NCBI RefSeq assembly: GCF_055900595.2
Contig: NZ_CM148325.1
DNA length: 64,000 bases
Strand: one strand, 5' to 3'
A model generated the notes under the pieces. The model saw only the letters and a list, made by a program, of their open reading frames with translations, was not told the DNA's origin and made no database searches. Shown here piece by piece: positions 348-42,849 of this stretch (positions are counted from its first letter, which is position 1; each line of letters begins with the position of its first letter). Both the position numbers and the translations under genes were made by a program.

Positions 348-683
348 TTAACCGTGCGCAGCCTTCATCAGTGTATCGTTAATCCACTGGTTAACGCTTT
401 TACCGGAGACTTCTGCCGCAACGTTAATGGCAGAGTGAATTTCAGGTGGAATACGCAGGCTGATTTTTCCGCTGGCCGGACGCAACGGCTCCCGGCCCCG
501 TTCCTCGCAGTAAGCCAGATAGTCGTCTACCGCCTCTTCAAACGCTTTACGCAGATCGGCAACATTATCGGCATGAAAGCCAATGACATCCCGAATGCCT
601 GCAACGTGACCAACAATGCATTGATCTTCATCGCTGTATTCAATTTTTGCGGCATAGCCTCTATATGTCATGGTATTCATCAT
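348..683 (-). CDS. hicB: HicB-family antitoxin (RNase H-like fold plus C-terminal RHH)
   Basis: 111 aa. C-terminal ribbon-helix-helix-like segment ISLRIPPEIHSAINVAAEVSGKSVNQWINDTLMKA. 4-nt ATGA overlap with the upstream hicA. Confidence 0.75.
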   Translation of the reverse strand: MMNTMTYRGYAAKIEYSDEDQCIVGHVAGIRDVIGFHADNVADLRKAFEEAVDDYLAYCEERGREPLRPASGKISLRIPPEIHSAINVAAEVSGKSVNQWINDTLMKAAHG

Positions 684-943
684 GGTGTTACCCCTACAGC
701 TTCAAGGAATGTTCTGGCATCGCGAACCTGATAGGCTTTCGCTTCTTTTTCCGGGTGTGGACGATGAAATGAAGCCACAACCTGATTAATTTCAAACCTG
801 ACGCGGGAACCGTTTCCTTCCGTAGCAATAGCCCCCAAAGCAATAAATAAGGCTTCTATTTTTCGCCATTCCAGCGTGACAGGTGTTGGCGTAGAAAAAA
901 CAGCTTGTAAGGTTTTTTTATGTTTGGCGCTTAACGTATTCAT
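680..943 (-). CDS. hicA: HicA-family mRNA interferase toxin
   Basis: 87 aa. Pattern GNGSRVRF...HRPHPEKE...VR..RTFLEAVGV fits the HicA signature (GSH-x-F, HxP, KE, lysine/arginine-rich C-terminus). Immediately upstream of hicB. Confidence 0.7.
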   Translation of the reverse strand: MNTLSAKHKKTLQAVFSTPTPVTLEWRKIEALFIALGAIATEGNGSRVRFEINQVVASFHRPHPEKEAKAYQVRDARTFLEAVGVTP

Positions 944-3344: not shown

Positions 3345-3718
3345 TTGCGTCCCCTTAAAAAGTCGAGCAGTTGACCGGGGTTATCCAGTTGTCGGATGGC
3401 CCATAGCAGCGCCTTGACGGTAAGCGCCGATGAGAGCAGCGCCCCGATACCGGGGGAGACTTTTTCCGTCAGATGTTGCGGCAGATATCCGGCGACCAGT
3501 GCAGTGAACAGGTCGGCGGTCAGCAGGCCGATCACAAACGCCACGCAGAAGAAAATGATGCGCAGGAACAGGCCGATCTCTTTTTGCGAAATCACCAGCA
3601 GCAGCGCGCCACACAATGCGCCGAGCACCACCGGAGCCTGTAGCGTCGGGAACAGCGTGGCAATGGAGAATGCGCTTACGGAAGCGGCGACGACGGTGCC
3701 GGTTACGGGTTCGTTCAT
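3341..3718 (-). CDS. Holin-like membrane protein
   Basis: About 125 aa taking the ATG at 3718 (MNEPVTG...); the track's longer form needs a GTG start. Multiple TM helices. Located directly after X. Confidence 0.55.
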   Translation of the reverse strand: MNEPVTGTVVAASVSAFSIATLFPTLQAPVVLGALCGALLLVISQKEIGLFLRIIFFCVAFVIGLLTADLFTALVAGYLPQHLTEKVSPGIGALLSSALTVKALLWAIRQLDNPGQLLDFLRGRK

Positions 3719-3720
3719 AG

Positions 3721-3924
3721 TCAGTCCCACAGGTTGATTCGTTGACGTTCGGCGGCGGGAGCCTGTTCAGGTACGTTCACCGCCGTACCGTGCGGCAGGC
3801 GCAGCGGCAGTTCGCATAGGCGCGGGTTGTCGCGGTAAAGCCGTTCGACAATCCCGGCAGTGCGCCCGAAGGTGCGCCAGCAGAGCTGGTCGAGCGTTTC
3901 GTTTTGCAGGCTATAGACAATCAT
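3721..3924 (-). CDS. Tail protein X (gpX-like)
   Basis: 67 aa, the same length as P2 gpX. Sequence MIVYSLQNETLDQLCWRTFGRT.... Confidence 0.7.
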   Translation of the reverse strand: MIVYSLQNETLDQLCWRTFGRTAGIVERLYRDNPRLCELPLRLPHGTAVNVPEQAPAAERQRINLWD

Positions 3925-4038
3925 GGTGTTTCCCGCGCGGCGTCAGGTGATGCGGGGATGGTGGCACAGGGGCGGGAAGTGAAGGGAAGGCTTCCGCTTG
4001 TAACTGAGGACAGTACAAGCGGAAGCGATTGGCGAGGG

Positions 4039-4359
4039 CTATGCCTCGTCGCTGTCGGTATTGATGATTTTCAGTTCAGCGGACTTCTGGAGCTGGATCA
4101 GCGCCGGGATCAGAAGCGCGGTAGCCGACAGGCCGTGCCCTAACTGGCACAGGCTTTCAGCGGAGAATTCCAGCACGTTGCTGTCGGCAAAGGAGACGAA
4201 GGTTTTACCCAGAAAATGCAGGCCGTGACATAGCCCGGCATAGCACTCTTCGCTGCTGTTGGCCAGTTGCAGAGTATCGTCGGCGTTCAGGTGTGAAATA
4301 TCCAGCTTGCGGATCGCGTCCGCCAGTTCAGAGGACAGAATATTGGTTTCAGGCACCAT
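4039..4359 (-). CDS. Hypothetical protein, 106 aa, acidic C-terminus
   Basis: Strong SD (GGAGGT, 5-nt spacer) before the ATG at 4359. No family recognised by eye. Last of three small genes in the L-X island. Confidence 0.55.
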   Translation of the reverse strand: MVPETNILSSELADAIRKLDISHLNADDTLQLANSSEECYAGLCHGLHFLGKTFVSFADSNVLEFSAESLCQLGHGLSATALLIPALIQLQKSAELKIINTDSDEA

Positions 4360-4525
4360 GGCGCACCTCCAGCGGTTTGCAGGAGACGAACACCAGCGGG
4401 AAACCCGCCAGCAGGCCGCGAGCCTCTGTCTCTGTTGTCGCCAGTACGGATACCAGACGCAGTGGCTGGATCTCGCGCAGCAGGCGGTTGGAACGGGCGT
4501 TCAGGAAGGTGTAGAGCTTAGGCAT
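4352..4525 (-). CDS. Hypothetical small protein, 57 aa (not in ORF track because <60 aa)
   Basis: Hand translation: MPKLYTFLNARSNRLLREIQPLRLVSVLATTETEARGLLAGFPLVFVSCKPLEVRHGA. SD GGAGGT 4 nt before the ATG at 4525. Overlaps both neighbours by 8 nt. Confidence 0.5.
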
Positions 4526-4694
4526 GGTTCACCTCCTCTACCGGGGTGCTACGTGGGGGATTGAACGACTGAGCGATAACGCTCAGTGCCTGCTTACCTT
4601 CGGGATGCGCAAGACGGTAGTAAGTTAACAGGACTTGCTCCTGTGGGCTGAGATCGTCCCACGTGAGAGTTGTGTTACTATTAGCGGTAGCCAT
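4518..4694 (-). CDS. Hypothetical small protein, 58 aa
   Basis: ATG at 4694 preceded by GAGGT (MATANSNTTLTWDDLSPQEQVLLTYYRLAHPEGK...). The track's longer form starts at 4757 without a good SD. Confidence 0.5.
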   Translation of the reverse strand: MATANSNTTLTWDDLSPQEQVLLTYYRLAHPEGKQALSVIAQSFNPPRSTPVEEVNHA

Positions 4695-4836
4695 AGCATT
4701 ACCTCGATTAATGTTGTGGTTAGATGCCTTGGCAGTGTTCGCGCACTGTCGGGGCATTGTTATTTATGTCATGTGATAGTAATGTGTCATCACACAGTAC
4801 TACATTAACCTGAGTGTGATTTAGGTGTCAATACAC
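4695..4836. promoter_or_regulatory. AT-rich divergent promoter/operator region between the two island operons
   Basis: Inverted repeat TGTGAT...ATCACA (tgtcatgtgatagtaatgtgtcatcacacag) and further GTGTGA copies between the start codons at 4694 (-) and 4837 (+). Confidence 0.45.
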
Positions 4837-5004
4837 ATGAATGAAAGAAGAGGAAATCCTCCGTTTCAGTTTCGACTCGATCCTGAACTGAGAAACGCGA
4901 TGGAAGAAGCTAAAAAGCAAGATGGTGATGAATCACTGGCTGCGTGGATTAAGCGAATTATCAGAAAAGAGCTTCAGTCACGGGGTATAGAACCAAAAGA
5001 TTAG
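4837..5004 (+). CDS. Arc/MetJ-type ribbon-helix-helix DNA-binding protein, 55 aa
   Basis: Hand translation: MNERRGNPPFQFRLDPELRNAMEEAKKQDGDESLAAWIKRIIRKELQSRGIEPKD, matching the RHH pattern F-x-L-R-L-x-x-E-L...SLN/A.I..RL. First gene of the + operon. Confidence 0.55.
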   Translation: MNERRGNPPFQFRLDPELRNAMEEAKKQDGDESLAAWIKRIIRKELQSRGIEPKD

Positions 5005-5050
5005 CAGATAGGTATATACTTTGAATAAAGAGTATTAGAGGTAAAAAATA

Positions 5051-5239
5051 ATGGCGAAGAATAGCAGTCCTGCCAGCCGATACGGTATCAAGGTCGTAAA
5101 AAGAGACAGTATGAGCGGGCAGTTTGTACCCGTCGAAATGAAGCTGGACGGCCCGGAAGGTGAGCGTGTGATTAAAAAGTCGGCAGAGCGTATTTATGCC
5201 AGACACAACAAAGTCATTAAGGCGCTGGCTAACCGATGA
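5051..5239 (+). CDS. Putative antitoxin partner of the Doc toxin (family not recognised; not Phd/YefM-like)
   Basis: 62 aa. SD AGAGGT upstream. Stop overlaps the Doc start (ATGA at 5236-5239), a typical toxin-antitoxin coupling. Confidence 0.5.
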   Translation: MAKNSSPASRYGIKVVKRDSMSGQFVPVEMKLDGPEGERVIKKSAERIYARHNKVIKALANR

Positions 5240-5613
5240 TTGATGCACATTTGGTGATTGGAATTCACGACTTTATTCTTGCTCATGAGCCGGGATTGGT
5301 TGGTTATCAGGATGCTGGCCGGGTCGAGGCAACACTGGCACGGGTGGATAACCGTATTCTGTATGAGCAGATGAATGATATTTTCCAGATCGCCGCATCT
5401 TATGCGGTTGCCATCGCCAGAGGGCACGTTTTTGCTGATGCCAACAAGCGAACGGCACTGGTGACGGCGTTGACATACCTTGATATGCAGGGTGTGAACC
5501 TCAAGCGAACACAAAAGCTGGAAGATATTATGGTGGATGTGGCTGAGGGAACGCTAAATCTGGATGATTTAGCCGATATTTTCTATACCCTTAGTGATGT
5601 AAATGCTTCCTGA
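5236..5613 (+). CDS. doc: Doc (death-on-curing) family toxin, Fic fold
   Basis: 125 aa. Conserved Doc motif HVFADANKRTA (HxFx[DN][AG]NKR). Size and layout parallel P1 Doc. Confidence 0.8.
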   Translation: MIDAHLVIGIHDFILAHEPGLVGYQDAGRVEATLARVDNRILYEQMNDIFQIAASYAVAIARGHVFADANKRTALVTALTYLDMQGVNLKRTQKLEDIMVDVAEGTLNLDDLADIFYTLSDVNAS

Positions 5614-5618
5614 CGTTA

Positions 5619-5643
5619 CAGCCCGACAGATCGGGCTGTTTTT
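5619..5643. terminator. Bidirectional hairpin terminator between the convergent Doc gene and the 78-aa gene
   Basis: cagcccga-caga-tcgggctg followed by TTTTT on + strand; A-run on the other side. Confidence 0.6.
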
Positions 5644-5645
5644 AA

Positions 5646-5882
5646 TTATGCCGCCTCAATACCCGCGTTGGTTAACATATAGTGGCCCCAGTGGTTTTTT
5701 TTCAGGTAACCGGCCAGTTCCATCTGCGTCACAATAAATTCAGCGTTAACCATTTCTATACCTGCGTAGTCGGCCAGATCGCGCAGCGGCCATGTGCTGC
5801 GAACGCCGACGCTAACTATGGTGTCTCTGATGCGGCGAGCGGTATCGGTCATTGGGCGGGTTCTGGCTGCCTGAATAGTCAT
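5646..5882 (-). CDS. Hypothetical protein, 78 aa, possible winged-helix DNA-binding protein
   Basis: ATG at 5882 with SD AGGGGA. Sequence ...LRDLADYAGIEMVNAEFIVTQMELAGYLKK... Lies directly after L on the late strand. Confidence 0.45.
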   Translation of the reverse strand: MTIQAARTRPMTDTARRIRDTIVSVGVRSTWPLRDLADYAGIEMVNAEFIVTQMELAGYLKKNHWGHYMLTNAGIEAA

Positions 5883-5998
5883 GGTATTTTCCCCTGTAGA
5901 TTCTTTCTGTTAGGTCAGACACTAACTCTGGTGGGGAAGGGGCATCCAGCGTTCAGATGAGGCGATACGGTGATGCGCATCGCATATCCGTACTCTTT

Positions 5999-6466
5999 TT
6001 ATACCAGAACAAACGTACTGCGCGGCTTGCCCAGAATATCCCGCACGGCGAAGCGGGCATCGCGCGCCAGATCGTCGGCGGTGCTTTCCTTCTGTTCCGC
6101 CAGTTTGCTGCCGTGGGCGGTGGCATCAAAGTTACGGTAGCGTTCCAGCAGGTTTGCGTGCGTCAGGCTGTACACCGCGTAGCGGTAGCGGTGCAGGTTA
6201 ACGCTTTCGCCGTCCAGCCGTTCGGTAGTAGTTTCCACAATGCCGGTTGTGCCACGGCTTTCCTGCTCCAGCCGCCATTCCCGCAGGTCGTCGTTCACGC
6301 TGGCCAGCGCAATCAGCAGCGCCTCGCGCAGCCGTTCGTTGGTGATGGTGCTGTCCAGCCGTTGGGTTGCACGCAGATGTTGCGTATCGATATTGGGAAA
6401 GAAAGGGTGGTTGCTGATAACCAGCCCCGGCAGACTGGCGGCGGGGGCAACCTGAATAAAGCTCAT
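5999..6466 (-). CDS. Head completion/stabilisation protein (gpL-like)
   Basis: 155 aa from the ATG at 6466 (MSFIQVAPAASLPG...) with SD GGAGA. Position after small terminase M. The track's longer form begins at an upstream alternative start. Confidence 0.7.
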   Translation of the reverse strand: MSFIQVAPAASLPGLVISNHPFFPNIDTQHLRATQRLDSTITNERLREALLIALASVNDDLREWRLEQESRGTTGIVETTTERLDGESVNLHRYRYAVYSLTHANLLERYRNFDATAHGSKLAEQKESTADDLARDARFAVRDILGKPRSTFVLV

Positions 6467-6551
6467 TATATTCTCCCTGTTCGGCGGTGGACGGCGGGCG
6501 TTGCAGTGGTAAAACCACGCGCGGCCAGCCGTGCCGCCGGTCGTGAGGGTC

Positions 6552-7205
6552 TCACTCGGTAGGCTGACTGTTGCGAATTTGTCGCTCCAGTTGCTCAATC
6601 AGCTTTTTCACGCCGACGTTCTCATCCAGTTGTAGCGCGCGCTGGAACTGCGCCAGCGCCTCCTGCGGCTGGCTTTCGCTGTGTGCCAGCCCCAATGCCT
6701 TGTGCAGGCGAGCGCGAACCTGATCCGGCATGTCCTGATCGGCTAACAGCCCGGCAAAGGCCAGCAGGCTGTCCAGCGCCGCAAAGGTACCGGCGGTAAG
6801 CTGTTTCAGGGTGGTGTCGGCGACCTCTTCAGCCACCATGCAGGCGGTCTGCCGCTGGTACTGATCCGGCGTTACCCAGCCGTGTTTCAGGGCGTGTTCC
6901 GCCATGGGGTAGGCAGCGGGAAAGTCGCCGGTATCCAGCGTCCAGAGCAGCACCGTCATAAACACATCGTCCTGCTGTTGGCTGTCGGCAGCCAGAACGC
7001 CGCTTACCCATGGCTGGTAATCGGGCAGCAGTTCACCCTTAACCTCGATTTTGCGTTCAATGGACTGGATCGCTTTCAGGCGGCGTTTATCGGTTGCCAG
7101 CTTTGCCAGCATCAGTTCATAGCCGCTGGCGTAGGTCTGATTTTCCTGTTGATTTGCGGCCTGCGCCTGATAGCGCAGCAGGTGGCGGCGGGCAGGCGTC
7201 ATCAT
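6552..7205 (-). CDS. Terminase small/endonuclease subunit (gpM-like)
   Basis: 217 aa, in the P2 late-operon position between N and L. Confidence 0.65.
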   Translation of the reverse strand: MMTPARRHLLRYQAQAANQQENQTYASGYELMLAKLATDKRRLKAIQSIERKIEVKGELLPDYQPWVSGVLAADSQQQDDVFMTVLLWTLDTGDFPAAYPMAEHALKHGWVTPDQYQRQTACMVAEEVADTTLKQLTAGTFAALDSLLAFAGLLADQDMPDQVRARLHKALGLAHSESQPQEALAQFQRALQLDENVGVKKLIEQLERQIRNSQPTE

Positions 7206-9059: not shown

Positions 9060-9214
9060 AACGTTCAGTCCCGGCGTTGGCTAAATAAGCGAATGGTCGG
9101 GTAGTCCTCCGCTATCAGGCAACGGGCTTCGCTTGTAATCATCCGGGTTACAAGCGGCATTGCTACGCGCAGACAGCGGCTTGTTTACGCTGACGGCAGA
9201 AACGAGAGGACGTT
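9060..9214. promoter_or_regulatory. Divergent late promoter region (P-type and O-type promoters)
   Basis: 155-bp intergenic gap between the divergent terminase (+) and scaffold (-) genes, as in P2, where Ogr-activated late promoters sit. Confidence 0.4.
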
Positions 9215-10999
9215 ATGCCGCCAGACATCGAAAAACATCTGCTTGCCCTTCAGGACGAAGATCCACGCCGTAAAGCCCGCTATCTGTACTGGCAGGGTTT
9301 TCGCATTGCGCGGATCGCTGAACTATTGGGGGTGAAAGTTACCACGCTGCATAGCTGGAAGCGGCGCGATGGCTGGGACGAATCCGCCCCGCTGGAGCGG
9401 GTGACGGCGGTGACCGAAGCGCGGCTGATCCAGCTCACGGTGAAGGAAAATAAGGAGGGAAAGGATTTTAAGGAGATCGACCTGCTCTGGCGGCAGATGG
9501 AGCGCGGGGCAAGGGTTGAACGCTATCAGCAGGGGGGCAATGAGGTCGACCTGAACCCTGCTCTTGCGAAGCGTAACGCCGGGCCGCGCAGACAGCCGGA
9601 AACCAACCATATCAGCGAGGAGCAGGCGGAGAAGCTGAAACAGTTATTTCTGGACGGACTGTATCCGCACCAGAAACACTGGTACCGCGCCGGGCTGGAA
9701 CACCGTATCCGCGATATCAACAAGTCGCGCCAGATTGGGGCGACGATGTTCTTCGGGCGGGAAGGATTTATGGATGCGGTGGAGAGCGGGCGCAACCAGA
9801 TCTTTCTCTCGGCCTCCAAAGCGCAGGCGCACCAGTTCCGCCAGTACATTGTCGATTTTGCTCGTGAGGCGGATGTTGAGCTGAAGGGCGAAGTCATTCA
9901 CTTGCCGCATAATGATAGCCGGATGTATTTTCTCGGCACCAATGCCCGCACCGCCCAGACCTATCATGGCAACCTGTATCTGGATGAATACTTCTGGATA
10001 CACCGCTTTTTGGAACTGCGCCGTAACGCGGCGGGGATGGCCAGCCAGAAACGCTGGCGGCAGACCTACTTTTCCACACCGTCCAGCATTACCCACGAAG
10101 CCTATAAGTTCTGGACAGGGCAACTGTTCAACAAGGGCAGGCCGAAGAGCGAACAGATTCGACTGGATATCAGCCATCGGGCGCTGGCGGCGGGGCGTCT
10201 GTGTGAAGACGGCCAGTGGCGGCAAATCGTCACCGTTGAGGATGCCATCAATCAGGGTTATGACCTGTTCGACCTTGAGCAACTCAGGCTGGAGAACTCG
10301 CCGGAAGAGTTCGCCAACCTGTTTATGTGCCAGTTTATCGACGATACCGCATCGGTATTCCCACTAAGCATGTTGCAGGGTTGCATGGTCGATAGCTGGG
10401 AAGTCTGGGACGACTACAAGCCGTTTGCCCTGCGTCCGCTCGGCGAACGCTCGGTGTGGGTGGGGTACGATCCCGCATTAAGCGGTGACAGCGCCGGGTG
10501 CGTGATGGTCGCGCCGCCGGTCATTGAGGGCGGCAAGTTTCGGGTAATTGAAAAGCACCAGTGGCACGGGATGGACTTCGCGGCGCAGGCGGAAAATATC
10601 CGCAAAATTACCGAGCGCTATAACGTGACTTACATCGGTATTGACGTGACCGGCATCGGCCACGGCGTGCATCAACTGGTGAAACAGTTCTTCCCGGCAG
10701 TGCAGGCATTCTCTTATTCCCCAGAAGTGAAACAGCGTCTGGTGCTGAAAACGCTGGACGTTGTCCGTAAACGCCGACTGGAGTTTGACGCCGGATGGAC
10801 GGATCTGGCGCAGGCGTTTATGGCAATTCGCAAAACCCTGACTCCGTCCGGGCGTCAGGTGACCTTCGAGGCCAGCCGTTCGGAAGAAGTCTCCCACGCG
10901 GATCTGGCATGGGCGTGTATGCACGCCATTATCAATGAACCACTGGAAAGCTCCGGCGGCGCGAACAGCGGGCGGGGCTTAATTAAGGTGTACGGATGA
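9215..10999 (+). CDS. Terminase large (ATPase) subunit (gpP-like)
   Basis: 594 aa, similar to P2 gpP in size. N-terminal HTH-like region; Walker-A-like KSRQIGATMF. Confidence 0.75.
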   Translation: MPPDIEKHLLALQDEDPRRKARYLYWQGFRIARIAELLGVKVTTLHSWKRRDGWDESAPLERVTAVTEARLIQLTVKENKEGKDFKEIDLLWRQMERGARVERYQQGGNEVDLNPALAKRNAGPRRQPETNHISEEQAEKLKQLFLDGLYPHQKHWYRAGLEHRIRDINKSRQIGATMFFGREGFMDAVESGRNQIFLSASKAQAHQFRQYIVDFAREADVELKGEVIHLPHNDSRMYFLGTNARTAQTYHGNLYLDEYFWIHRFLELRRNAAGMASQKRWRQTYFSTPSSITHEAYKFWTGQLFNKGRPKSEQIRLDISHRALAAGRLCEDGQWRQIVTVEDAINQGYDLFDLEQLRLENSPEEFANLFMCQFIDDTASVFPLSMLQGCMVDSWEVWDDYKPFALRPLGERSVWVGYDPALSGDSAGCVMVAPPVIEGGKFRVIEKHQWHGMDFAAQAENIRKITERYNVTYIGIDVTGIGHGVHQLVKQFFPAVQAFSYSPEVKQRLVLKTLDVVRKRRLEFDAGWTDLAQAFMAIRKTLTPSGRQVTFEASRSEEVSHADLAWACMHAIINEPLESSGGANSGRGLIKVYG

Positions 11000-11976
11000 A
11001 TAACTCAATGGCTTTCACCTTCGGTGAACCTGAAGCCCTGCTGGACAGGCGGGAAATACTGAACTATCTGGAGTGCGTGGACTTTGGCAAATGGTATGCG
11101 CCGCCGGTGGATTTTAATTCGCTGGCGCTGTCGTTCCGCGCTTCGGCGCATCATACCAGCCCGATCTGCGTGAAGCGCAACGTGCTGGTTGGTACCTTCA
11201 TACCTCATCCGTTGTTGACCCGGCAGGCGTTCAGCCGCCTTGCGCTGGACTATCTGGTATTCGGCAATGCCTATCTGGAGCGGCAGGATAACCGGCTGGG
11301 CCAGCCGTTAACGCTGGTGCCTGCGCTGGCGAAGTATGTCCGGCGCGGCAAGGCGCTGGACAGCTATTTCTTTGTTCAGCCCGGTAAAGTGGATCATGAG
11401 TTTGCGTCGGGCAGTATCGGCCACCTGCTGGAGCCGGATATCAATCAGGAAATCTACGGCCTGTCGGAATACCTCTCTGCGCTGAACGCGGCATGGCTGG
11501 ATAACTCCGCCACGCTGTTTCGCCGTCGTTACTACAAGAACGGCAGTCATGCCGGTTTCATCCTCTACCTGAGCGACCCGGCCCACAACGAGGCGGATAT
11601 TGGGGCGTTACAGGAAGCGCTAGCGAACAGCCGTGGCCCCGGCAACTTCCGCAATCTGCTGATGTATCTGCCGAACGGCAAGCCAGACAGCGTAAAGGTT
11701 ATCCCGATTGGCGAGGTGGCGGCGAAAGATAACTTCTCCGATATCAAGAGTGTCAGCCGTGACGACCAGTTAGCTGCGCACCGGGTACCACCTGCGCTCA
11801 TGGGCGTGGTACCGAGTAACGCCGGTGGCTTTGGTGATGCCATCAAAGCGGCGAAGGTATTCAACTGCAATGAGATCGAGCCGCTACAGGAACGGTTCAA
11901 GGAGCTGAACGACTGGCTGGGGCTGGAGGTTATTCGCTTCAAAAAGTACCGCCTTGCCGACGACGATTCAGAGTAA
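10996..11976 (+). CDS. Portal vertex protein (gpQ-like)
   Basis: 326 aa, translationally coupled to the terminase (ATGA overlap); position as in P2 Q. Confidence 0.65.
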   Translation: MNNSMAFTFGEPEALLDRREILNYLECVDFGKWYAPPVDFNSLALSFRASAHHTSPICVKRNVLVGTFIPHPLLTRQAFSRLALDYLVFGNAYLERQDNRLGQPLTLVPALAKYVRRGKALDSYFFVQPGKVDHEFASGSIGHLLEPDINQEIYGLSEYLSALNAAWLDNSATLFRRRYYKNGSHAGFILYLSDPAHNEADIGALQEALANSRGPGNFRNLLMYLPNGKPDSVKVIPIGEVAAKDNFSDIKSVSRDDQLAAHRVPPALMGVVPSNAGGFGDAIKAAKVFNCNEIEPLQERFKELNDWLGLEVIRFKKYRLADDDSE

Positions 11977-23622: not shown

Positions 23623-24912
23623 ATGACGCGCCGTGCTATCGGGGTGAGTGAAAGACCGCCACTTTTACAGACAATCCCGCTTAGTTTGCAACATTTGTTC
23701 GCCATGTTTGGTGCAACCGTCTTGGTGCCCGTCTTATTTCATATTAACCCGGCGACTGTACTGTTATTTAACGGTATAGGAACGCTGCTGTATCTCTTCA
23801 TCTGTAAAGGGAAAATCCCGGCTTATCTTGGTTCCAGCTTTGCCTTTATTTCACCGGTATTGTTACTGTTGCCGTTAGGGTATGAAGTCGCGCTGGGCGG
23901 CTTTATTATGTGCGGCGTGCTGTTCTGCCTGGTTTCTTTTATCGTGAAGAAAGCGGGGACCGGCTGGCTGGACGTGCTGTTTCCACCTGCGGCAATGGGC
24001 GCAATCGTTGCCGTCATCGGTCTGGAGTTGGCGGGCGTAGCTGCCGGTATGGCAGGTTTACTCCCGGCTGAAGGGCAAACGCCAGACTCCAAAACCATCA
24101 TCATCTCCATTACCACGCTGGCAGTCACGGTTTTAGGTTCCGTGCTGTTTCGTGGTTTCCTGGCAATTATCCCGATTTTAATTGGCGTGCTGGTGGGCTA
24201 CGCGCTCTCTTTCGCAATGGGAATTGTCGATACCACGCCGATTATTAATGCTCACTGGTTTGCGCTGCCAACTCTCTATACGCCGCGCTTCGAGTGGTTT
24301 GCCATTCTGACTATTCTGCCAGCGGCGTTAGTGGTTATTGCCGAACACGTAGGGCACCTGGTAGTAACGGCTAATATCGTCAAAAAAGATCTGCTGCGCG
24401 ATCCAGGTCTGCACCGTTCGATGTTTGCTAACGGCTTGTCGACCGTGATCTCCGGCTTCTTTGGCTCCACGCCAAACACCACCTACGGGGAAAACATTGG
24501 CGTGATGGCGATCACCCGTGTTTACAGTACCTGGGTTATCGGCGGGGCGGCGATTTTCGCTATCCTGCTTTCCTGCGTCGGTAAACTGGCTGCTGCTATC
24601 CAGATGATCCCATTGCCGGTGATGGGCGGCGTTTCGCTGCTGCTTTATGGTGTTATCGGTGCTTCCGGTATTCGTGTTTTGATCGAATCGAAAGTGGATT
24701 ACAACAAAGCACAGAACCTGATCCTGACTTCCGTGATTTTGATCATCGGTGTCAGTGGCGCGAAGGTAAACATCGGCGCGGCGGAGCTGAAAGGTATGGC
24801 GCTGGCGACCATCGTCGGTATCGGCTTAAGTTTGATCTTCAAACTGATTAGTGTGCTGCGACCTGAAGAAGTGGTGCTGGACGCAGAAGACGCGGATATA
24901 ACAGACAAATAA
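23623..24912 (+). CDS. uraA: Uracil:H+ symporter
   Basis: 429 aa from ATG at 23623 ([16 protein letters not shown]...); polytopic membrane protein. Confidence 0.95.
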
Positions 24913-42655: not shown

Positions 42656-42849
42656 TCTGATTAATTTAATATATTCAATAAGTTATGTGTTAACTGGGTT
42701 CTGAACGGTACAAAAATGATGGTCATTAACGTTCAGCAATAAATGGATTCGACACCCGTGTCGCAGGGGAAAGCGAGAATGTGATCTTGATCACGAGAAG
42801 TGAGGTGTGCTGGCCGCAAGCGCAGCCAGCACTGAATGGAGCAAAGTAA

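Follow-up and report, generated by a model that had tools for sequence, protein, structure and literature searches.

What is the small open reading frame (ORF) that follows the head completion gene L in a rare Escherichia coli P2-like prophage: a late phage gene, a partner of the toxin gene that converges on it, or a passenger? The ORF lies on the minus strand at 5646–5882 of the window, by which we mean the whole 64,000-nucleotide (nt) stretch of contig NZ_CM148325.1 (assembly GCF_055900595.2) that was analyzed; it starts with ATG and encodes 78 amino acids (aa). It is a real, conserved, yet dispensable prophage gene under purifying selection. Our overall reading, which we consider fairly probable, is that this gene is a self-contained moron cassette for a small, probably DNA-binding regulator. 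A moron, in the sense of Hendrix and Juhala, is an extra gene that has its own promoter and terminator and is expressed from a repressed prophage.

A conserved gene with a predicted winged-helix product

An ORF of 78 codons carries little weight on its own, because 101 ORFs of at least 40 aa occur in 12 kb. Homologues of the 78-aa protein formed 18 clusters at 90% identity; 17 of the 18 are 78 aa long, and they are 73–91% identical to the window protein. Variable sites in the family number 28, 20 and 67 at codon positions 1, 2 and 3, respectively, and the pairwise ratio of nonsynonymous to synonymous substitution (dN/dS) has a median of 0.17 (range 0.05–0.37); for solo copies in prophages with Mu-like tail genes it is 0.08–0.24. 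The homologue clusters, the codon-position bias and the dN/dS values, together with a confident fold prediction, identify the ORF as a real gene. A Shine-Dalgarno (SD)-like GGGGAA lies at 5894–5889 on the minus strand, 8 nt before the ATG, and GGGGAA or GGAA is kept in 12 loci. Upstream lies gpL, a head completion gene (5999–6469, minus strand; Pfam Phage_GPL, E = 1e-44; PHROG head-tail adaptor Ad1) and the last core gene of the O-N-M-L head operon, whose stop codon is 116 bp from the ORF. An earlier, sequence-only reading of the window had described a gene with its own SD on the late strand directly after L, and it was right in these respects. Proteins identical to the product are recorded on 376 contigs, always under the name ‘hypothetical protein’ (UniProt A0A2K3TWN9 among them).

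AlphaFold2, run on an alignment of 19 sequences, gave a model with a pLDDT of 81 and a pTM of 0.71. Its predicted elements are three helices (residues 13–25, 33–40 and 44–56), two beta strands (60–62 and 68–70) and a short terminal helix (72–76), that is, a helix-helix-helix-beta-beta topology in which, as in a winged helix-turn-helix (wHTH), three helices are followed by a beta-hairpin wing. The best Foldseek matches were the 81-aa putative DNA-binding protein 2obp, MntR, IdeR/DtxR and MarR-DNA complexes (E about 0.006–0.03, TM 0.6–0.7), and comparison with viral structures returned generic small wHTH proteins only. Residues that are invariant in the family group in helix 3 (E48, F49, I50, T52, Q53 and M54) and in the wing (K62, W65, G66, H67, Y68, L70 and T71). 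On this model, the product is a minimal stand-alone wHTH with a MarR/DtxR-like core and without a ligand or dimerization domain; a winged-helix region, previously put forward as a possibility, agrees with both the model and its structural neighbors.

The likeness to these proteins does not extend to family membership. Identity to the MarR and DtxR-IdeR-MntR domains (e.g. 2rdp, 7b25 and 6kta) and to the stand-alone 81-aa Reut_B4095 (2obp) is 10–30%. The MarR and DtxR-IdeR-MntR proteins are 130–230 aa long, compared with 78 aa here, and the window protein has neither the MarR dimerization helices nor the metal-binding or SH3 domains of DtxR; the surface of its helix 3 is acidic and polar, whereas it is basic in MarR/DtxR-type domains. 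MarR family proteins are about 140 aa long, with N- and C-terminal dimerization helices. The family (PF01047/PF12802) was rejected for the window protein: no MarR Pfam model matched at E<1, the product is 78 aa long, and one helix precedes its wHTH while a five-residue helix follows it. DtxR, IdeR and MntR are marked by the Fe_dep_repress N-terminal profile and a metal-binding dimerization domain. This family was likewise rejected, as no Pfam or NCBIfam match was found and the protein stops right after the wing, leaving a likeness at the level of the fold only. A profile search of PDB sequences returned only noise, and when 1.84 billion representatives were searched exhaustively with an HMMER profile, two family representatives and no remote relatives came up.

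Occurrence of the gene among prophages

The window is E. coli chromosome, with yfgG-yfgH-yfgI-pdeF from about 12.8 kb on (99.9% identical to E. coli). The preceding part, from position 1 up to about 12.8 kb, belongs to a P2-like prophage and covers its head, lysis and tail-completion genes: Q and P on the plus strand (9215–11976), then O, N, M and L in the minus orientation (from 9059 to 5999), then X (3721–3924), two holins, a muramidase, LysB/C, R, S and finally hicAB (348–943). No gpL more than 60% identical was found among sequenced phages, and a megablast search of 3700–6500 against 50,697 phage genomes gave no match; the prophage lineage is carried by 3 of 5,426 complete E. coli genomes. 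Judged by these comparisons, the host phage is a divergent, un-isolated lineage of Peduoviridae.

A perfect dyad, CTTGTA-N11-TACAAG, occurs three times in the window. The copy at 9132–9154 lies in the divergent O/P promoter region, where the annotation of P2 has an activator-binding site. That at 3997–4019 lies upstream of X, with its center 84 nt from the ATG, a distance equal to that for O; the third (286–308) comes just after a hairpin with a T-run (about 330–310) that we read by eye as a terminator after hicAB. The dyads are putative sites for a late activator of the Ogr family, and X would then head a late operon of its own in this lineage, unlike in P2, where L (6000–6509) and X (6509–6712) abut inside one operon. 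If X has its own late operon, the L-X junction is a boundary between transcription units.

A gpL-anchored search retrieved five IMG/VR loci. In two of them (L023 and L024, gpL 88% identical) L and X are 112 bp apart and the stretch between them is the dyad region, which makes this an empty site; a third (L025) carries an island in which a 305-aa Rpn-like gene and an Arc-like gene are present and the 78-aa gene is missing. Compared with this empty site of L023 and L024, the window has 1,966 bp inserted (4033–5998) between L and the putative X promoter, starting right after the L stop codon, and the 78-aa gene is the first gene in this accessory island. The same holds wherever P2-like islands carry the gene: it is always the first after L, and the genes that follow vary. 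An extra gene between conserved neighbors, present in some relatives and absent from others, is what defines a moron by position.

This pattern also settles whether the product is a conserved head or tail accessory or assembly protein of the P2 family, expressed from the late operon only. The gene does follow L directly on the late strand, and no canonical terminator separates the two. However, neither P2 nor close relatives in which L and X are intact have it, non-P2 prophages carry it in an orientation opposed to their structural genes, and tblastn of the protein against the 50,697 phage genomes found no match (up to E 10, only noise in Staphylococcus tail proteins). A P2 late structural or assembly gene, found at the same position throughout P2-like phages, was therefore rejected as an identity for the gene; presence and absence have already refuted this explanation, to which we give practically no chance. 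The sequence-only reading had not recognized a P2 late gene here, and the abutting L and X of P2, the empty L-X junctions and the island without the gene all bear it out.

Outside P2-like prophages, the 78-aa gene occurs by itself at the very end of unrelated myovirus prophages whose baseplate and tail genes are Mu-like, and it converges there on a Dam-type methylase gene. These contexts were found in Lelliottia, Serratia marcescens and Enterobacter ludwigii, where they adjoin three different host loci, and also in one IMG/VR locus (L020). A third context is an approximately 3-kb dusA-integrase remnant in Intestinirhabdus alba, in which the 78-codon frame is intact and shares 70 nt with the end of int; a 68/98-aa gene and then a HigBA-like pair come after it. 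Gene callers annotate a 57-aa truncated version of the frame in the I. alba loci (L014, L015 and L021). A scan of 100,044 species-representative genomes gave one locus, that in I. alba, and plasmids searched by tblastn with the protein had none. By these searches the family is tiny.

The company of an integrase raises the question of whether the protein is a recombination directionality factor, an excisionase-like winged helix, or a recombination accessory that mobilizes the cassette. It is a small winged helix; a tyrosine integrase gene adjoins it in I. alba; it sits at the extreme prophage end, at the host junction, in Lelliottia, Serratia and Enterobacter; and one and the same cassette occurs at unrelated positions in different elements. 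In P2-like prophages, however, the gene lies mid-genome, far from att and int. The I. alba ORF overlaps the end of int, and the remnant, with its Toprim fragment, resembles a deletion junction. The fold neighbors are tri-helical MarR/DtxR cores, with no Xis or AlpA/MerR-type protein among the listed fold matches, and there was no Phage_AlpA or Xis match in Pfam. We regard a role in recombination as very improbable.

The conserved 5′ region and the case for a small regulator

We aligned the 125 nt upstream of the gene from 12 loci of two context types, P2-like and Mu-like-tail prophages. The ORFs of these two types have a synonymous divergence of about 0.8–1.2; notwithstanding a divergence of about one, three upstream blocks are conserved between them at fixed spacing. 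The first is a palindrome, GYGAT-N4-ATCRC, with its core at 5970–5983 in the window and extended as TGCGA-TGCGCA-TCACC at 5984–5969 (minus strand). It lies 20 nt upstream of the second block in 11 of the 12 loci, the spacer in the remaining one (L009) being 19 nt; in the Lelliottia locus (L005) the position holds only a weaker CRP-like match. The exact palindrome occurs three times in the window, compared with 0.26 expected. We noted that the other two matches (24502–24515 and 42781–42794) lie in host DNA; the second, GTGATCTTGATCAC, is intergenic and resembles an ordinary CRP site. The second block, CTGGATG (5943–5949, minus strand), is invariant in the 12 loci. After 17–18 variable nt follows the third block, an invariant 12-mer, GAGTTAGTGTCT, that ends about 35 nt before the ATG (5917–5928 in the window, minus strand); in 22 loci of the two context types there is exactly one copy of this 12-mer per locus, solely just upstream of the 78-aa gene.

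Blocks two and three can be read as a promoter, TGGATG-N17/18-TAGTGT, with TGGATG as a putative –35-like element and TAGTGT (5924–5919, within the 12-mer) as a putative –10-like element. The center of the palindrome would then lie at –61.5 to –63.5 from the assumed start site. The palindrome matches the CRP consensus TGTGA-N6-TCACA at 8 of 10 positions in the window and at 7–8 of 10 across loci, and the best CRP-like 16-mer of the upstream 125 nt lies at the same place in all 12 loci. Nearly all of them keep the bases that are usually critical for recognition by CRP, namely G5, G7, A8 and their symmetric counterparts. In a class I CRP-dependent promoter, TGTGA-N6-TCACA is centered near –61.5, upstream of a promoter with a weak –35 element. 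By analogy with what is generally known of CRP promoters, the arrangement of palindrome and hexamers has the geometry of this class. As a detail within our overall reading, a CRP-dependent promoter seems to us possible, though doubtful; the palindrome could equally be a host CRP site or an operator of the winged-helix protein itself. We also inspected the upstream blocks as sigma-E, sigma-54, sigma-32 or Ogr-type sites and rejected these readings, as either the spacing or key bases misfit.

Transcription could reach the gene in two ways. In prophages of the Mu-like-tail type, it stands next to host DNA and points toward the tail genes, to whose operon it cannot belong; a promoter of its own is therefore required there. 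In the P2-like context no canonical minus-strand terminator lies between L and the gene, and late read-through from the head promoter is plausible. The sole structure between the two genes is a hairpin just after the L stop codon (5966–5992, –17 kcal/mol, no U-tract), which encloses the palindrome. Minimum-free-energy folds of P2-like loci also pair CTTCCCC with the GGGGAA of the SD; this anti-SD pairing was rejected, since it has no covariation support and is absent from the Mu-like-tail context.

At the other end of the gene, a G+C-rich hairpin with a 9-bp stem (5618–5639) starts 6 nt past the stop codon, in the space between the 78-aa gene and the convergent Doc gene. Its T-run (5640–5643) lies on the plus, or Doc, strand only, while on the minus strand the stem is followed by AACGTCAGG, without a U-tract. 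For this reason the element (5618–5643) has the form of a canonical intrinsic terminator for the Doc operon, and not demonstrably for the 78-aa gene. The sequence-only reading had taken it for a terminator shared by both: a hairpin is indeed present at the shared position, but the U-tract serves the Doc strand alone. We also noted a near-identical hairpin in S. symbiotica (L001, 7212–7245), likewise between late-strand cargo and doc, with its T-run on the late-strand (higA) side, compared with the Doc side in the window. A local inversion of the segment between window and S. symbiotica agrees with the flanks but not with the loop.

The elements described above make up a compact cassette of about 340 bp, which travels as a unit: a CRP-like palindrome, a 20-bp spacer, CTGGATG, a spacer of 17–18 bp, TAGTGT within the 12-mer, some 30 nt of leader, then the SD and the ORF. 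We suggest that in a lysogen it would be transcribed from its own weak promoter, possibly with the assistance of cAMP-CRP, and that during lytic growth additional transcription would come by read-through from the late head promoter. The 78-aa protein would act as a small regulator that contacts DNA with its helix 3 and its invariant wing, KKxHWGHY. The first candidate target would be its own palindrome, which would amount to autoregulation, and other targets may lie in trans.

Several observations weigh against this reading. Regarding the promoter, the hexamers of TGGATG-N17/18-TAGTGT each match the consensus at only 3 of 6 positions, and a sigma-70 consensus scan of 3600–6700 found no promoter; an 8/10 match to the CRP consensus is expected many times by chance in 64 kb and is not significant alone. 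The moron trait of an own promoter and terminator is accordingly represented by conserved hexamers and a palindrome, but with these weak matches, that negative scan and no U-tract on the strand of the gene. Regarding the protein, its net charge is about +0.7 (pI 8.2), and the putative recognition helix, NAEFIVTQMELAG (helix 3), has two conserved Glu and neither Arg nor Lys; near-neutral charge and an acidic recognition helix fit a protein-binding winged helix about equally well. Pfam, NCBIfam and PADLOC gave no significant family (the only matches were WHD_MCM8, E = 0.049, MkoB, 0.06, and Mrr_N, 0.07). The single family match is PHROG 331 (phrog_331), which has no assigned function (E = 9.5e-8, 32.7 bits, residues 9–73 against positions 39–102 of 111). 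The matched part covers the predicted winged-helix region, but the 111-position profile has about 38 extra positions at its N-terminus; no phrog_331 members were retrieved by tblastn from the 50,697 phage genomes. Lastly, in most P2-like loci the 78-aa gene is translationally coupled to a gene for a 68-aa helical protein that is missing directly downstream of it in the window, and the natural role of the 78-aa protein may need this partner.

These points feed the main rival explanation, in which the winged helix contacts other proteins instead of binding DNA. The protein might then serve as an adaptor, inhibit a factor of the host or of a competing phage, counter a defense system, or form a two-protein unit with the 68-aa protein. 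The hydrophobic as well as acidic character of the recognition helix would suit such a role. The invariant wing sequence HWGHY, aromatic and rich in His, looks more like a binding surface than like a basic, DNA-contacting wing. A TAATG stop/start overlap links the gene to a conserved helical protein of 68–98 aa in at least six loci, and the fold matches include winged helices that do not bind DNA (Rio2 kinase and the N-domains of O-methyltransferases), in addition to the weak Pfam match to the MCM8 winged-helix domain. Against it, the gene is kept under purifying selection without the 68-aa partner in the window lineage and in all Mu-like-tail contexts, its nearest structural neighbors are DNA-binding repressors, and the conserved palindrome travels with the gene. 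We therefore judge the protein-contact explanation to be unlikely, and prefer a small DNA-binding regulator that, in the window lineage, would act without the 68-aa partner.

Cargo of the L-X island and the neighboring Doc module

The genes behind the 78-aa gene differ from one P2-like island to the next. In S. symbiotica, it is followed by the 68-aa helical gene (through the TAATG stop/start overlap), a Gp49/HTH_37 (HigBA-like) pair and a convergent Doc module. Salmonella has the same 68-aa gene and HigBA-like pair without Doc, and E. coli L725/CEC15 has them with other convergent cargo. In Klebsiella quasipneumoniae, the followers are a 73-aa homologue of the 68-aa gene, a PhdYeFM-PIN pair and AAA_15/21 with DUF4435 (PARIS-type); in one IMG/VR locus (L018), a convergent 223-aa gene. 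In the window, in E. coli GMF054 and in all 24 contigs read that carry the identical protein, the Doc terminator comes directly after the gene. Compared with S. symbiotica, the window has 961 bp fewer, corresponding to the 68-aa gene and the HigBA-like pair, and the junction falls exactly at the stop/start overlap (TAAT|G).

The nearest neighbor in the window is the Doc/Fic toxin gene (5236–5613, plus strand; Pfam Fic, E = 2.6e-10; PHROG Doc-like toxin, E = 1.6e-35), which is convergent with the 78-aa gene. It overlaps by 4 nt an upstream 62-aa gene (5051–5239, plus strand; phrog_11529), its likely cognate antitoxin, which travels with Doc in another locus (L019). Further upstream lies a 59-aa Arc/YlcI-like gene (4825–5004, plus strand), which heads the antisense cargo operon. 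This trio of Arc/YlcI-like gene, 62-aa gene and doc recurs as a unit.

Could the 78-aa protein be an antitoxin, a co-regulator or an anti-Doc factor of this module, as had been suggested from the sequence of the window? The gene adjoins doc, convergent and with a common hairpin region, in the window, in all 24 E. coli contigs and in GMF054, and many antitoxins are small DNA-binding proteins. Like the Phd/YefM-type antitoxins of Doc, the protein is small and is encoded beside a Doc toxin. Unlike them, its gene lies on the opposite strand, downstream of doc, its predicted fold is a winged helix, and it does not co-vary with Doc; a Phd/YefM-like antitoxin gene, which would lie upstream in the same operon and be co-inherited, was rejected as an identity for it. 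The canonical antitoxin position is already filled by the 62-aa gene, with the Arc/YlcI-like gene before it. No Doc accompanies the 78-aa gene in Salmonella, Klebsiella, E. coli L725/CEC15, the L018 locus, all Mu-like-tail prophage loci and I. alba, and where both are present in S. symbiotica they are about 1 kb apart, with the HigBA-like pair between. Because most contexts of the gene have no Doc, and Doc is already paired with an overlapping upstream gene, an antitoxin role is scarcely credible; the distribution largely refutes it, and the suggested tie to Doc falls with it. We conclude that the 78-aa protein is neither a virion component nor the antitoxin of the adjacent Doc.

Some further features of these islands were noted. 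Across loci (the window, L009, L017, L018 and L025), cargo at the L-X junction comprises the Doc toxin-antitoxin module, the HigBA-like pair, the PhdYeFM-PIN pair, PARIS-type AAA_15/21 with DUF4435, the Rpn-like 305-aa gene, and 223-aa and 177-aa genes; antisense cargo is usually led by an Arc/YlcI-like gene of 55–59 aa. At 4689–4761 (plus strand), a weak Rfam match to the SymR antitoxin RNA (E = 0.0095; 29 bits, where the gathering score is 61) runs antisense to the 5′ leader and start of a conserved small gene whose product begins ‘MATANSN...’. A hairpin within it (4723–4758), which shows compensatory changes among loci and after which comes the invariant ACCACAACATTA, could be a structured leader or an antisense RNA. 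About 150 bp at 4520–4672 are extra in the window and absent from E. coli GMF054 and S. symbiotica; they split a conserved 68-aa gene into a 79/58-aa ORF (4518–4757) and a 58-aa ORF (4349–4525). The hicA/hicB toxin-antitoxin pair (348–943, minus strand) is inserted after tail gene S, an arrangement shared with S. symbiotica, and Salmonella has an AbiTii gene at the same spot, which marks this as a second cargo site.

We found no description of the L-X island or of the 78-aa protein in the literature. For E. coli, a P2/P4 hotspot between gpA and gpQ (cos-proximal) has been described and two classical variable loci cited (Rousset et al., 2022; PMC9122126), and the terms gpL, gpX and ‘head completion’ are absent from that paper. 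The island resembles P2-family morons and variable loci (old/tin next to cos, and Z/fun) and the P2/P4 defense hotspots (PMC9122126) in that non-essential cargo lies between core genes, varies in presence and absence, and is swapped among relatives; its likeness to the defense hotspots extends to the cargo itself, which includes toxin-antitoxin modules and, in Klebsiella, PARIS-type AAA_15/21 with DUF4435. It differs from the classical loci (cos-proximal gpA-gpQ, and Z/fun) in its place at L-X, at the boundary between the head and the tail-lysis operons. On our reading of the dyads, the island would exist at this position because the lineage gives X its own late promoter.

A bolder version would make the 78-aa protein a nutrient-responsive, cAMP-CRP-controlled regulator acting in trans, or an exclusion factor, that leads an undescribed L-X hotspot (HigBA-like, VapBC-like, Doc, Rpn-like and PARIS-type cargo in relatives), within a cassette that hops between P2-like and Mu-like-tail prophages. 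Taken as a whole, we find this version decidedly unlikely.

The protein is new and unannotated, while its kind, the small prophage winged-helix protein or moron, is very common. The L-X island is more interesting than the 78-aa gene itself: the gene points to an accessory island outside the classical P2 variable loci, at a position that would be permissive because X has a separate late promoter, and in relatives the cargo includes toxin-antitoxin and PARIS-type defense genes. The cassette is compact and portable, and its conserved 5′ elements predict CRP- or auto-regulated expression from the repressed prophage. If it is true that the 78-aa protein controls cargo expression or excludes phages, a class of small regulators would be added to prophage-encoded defense; otherwise, the gene would be an ordinary moron.

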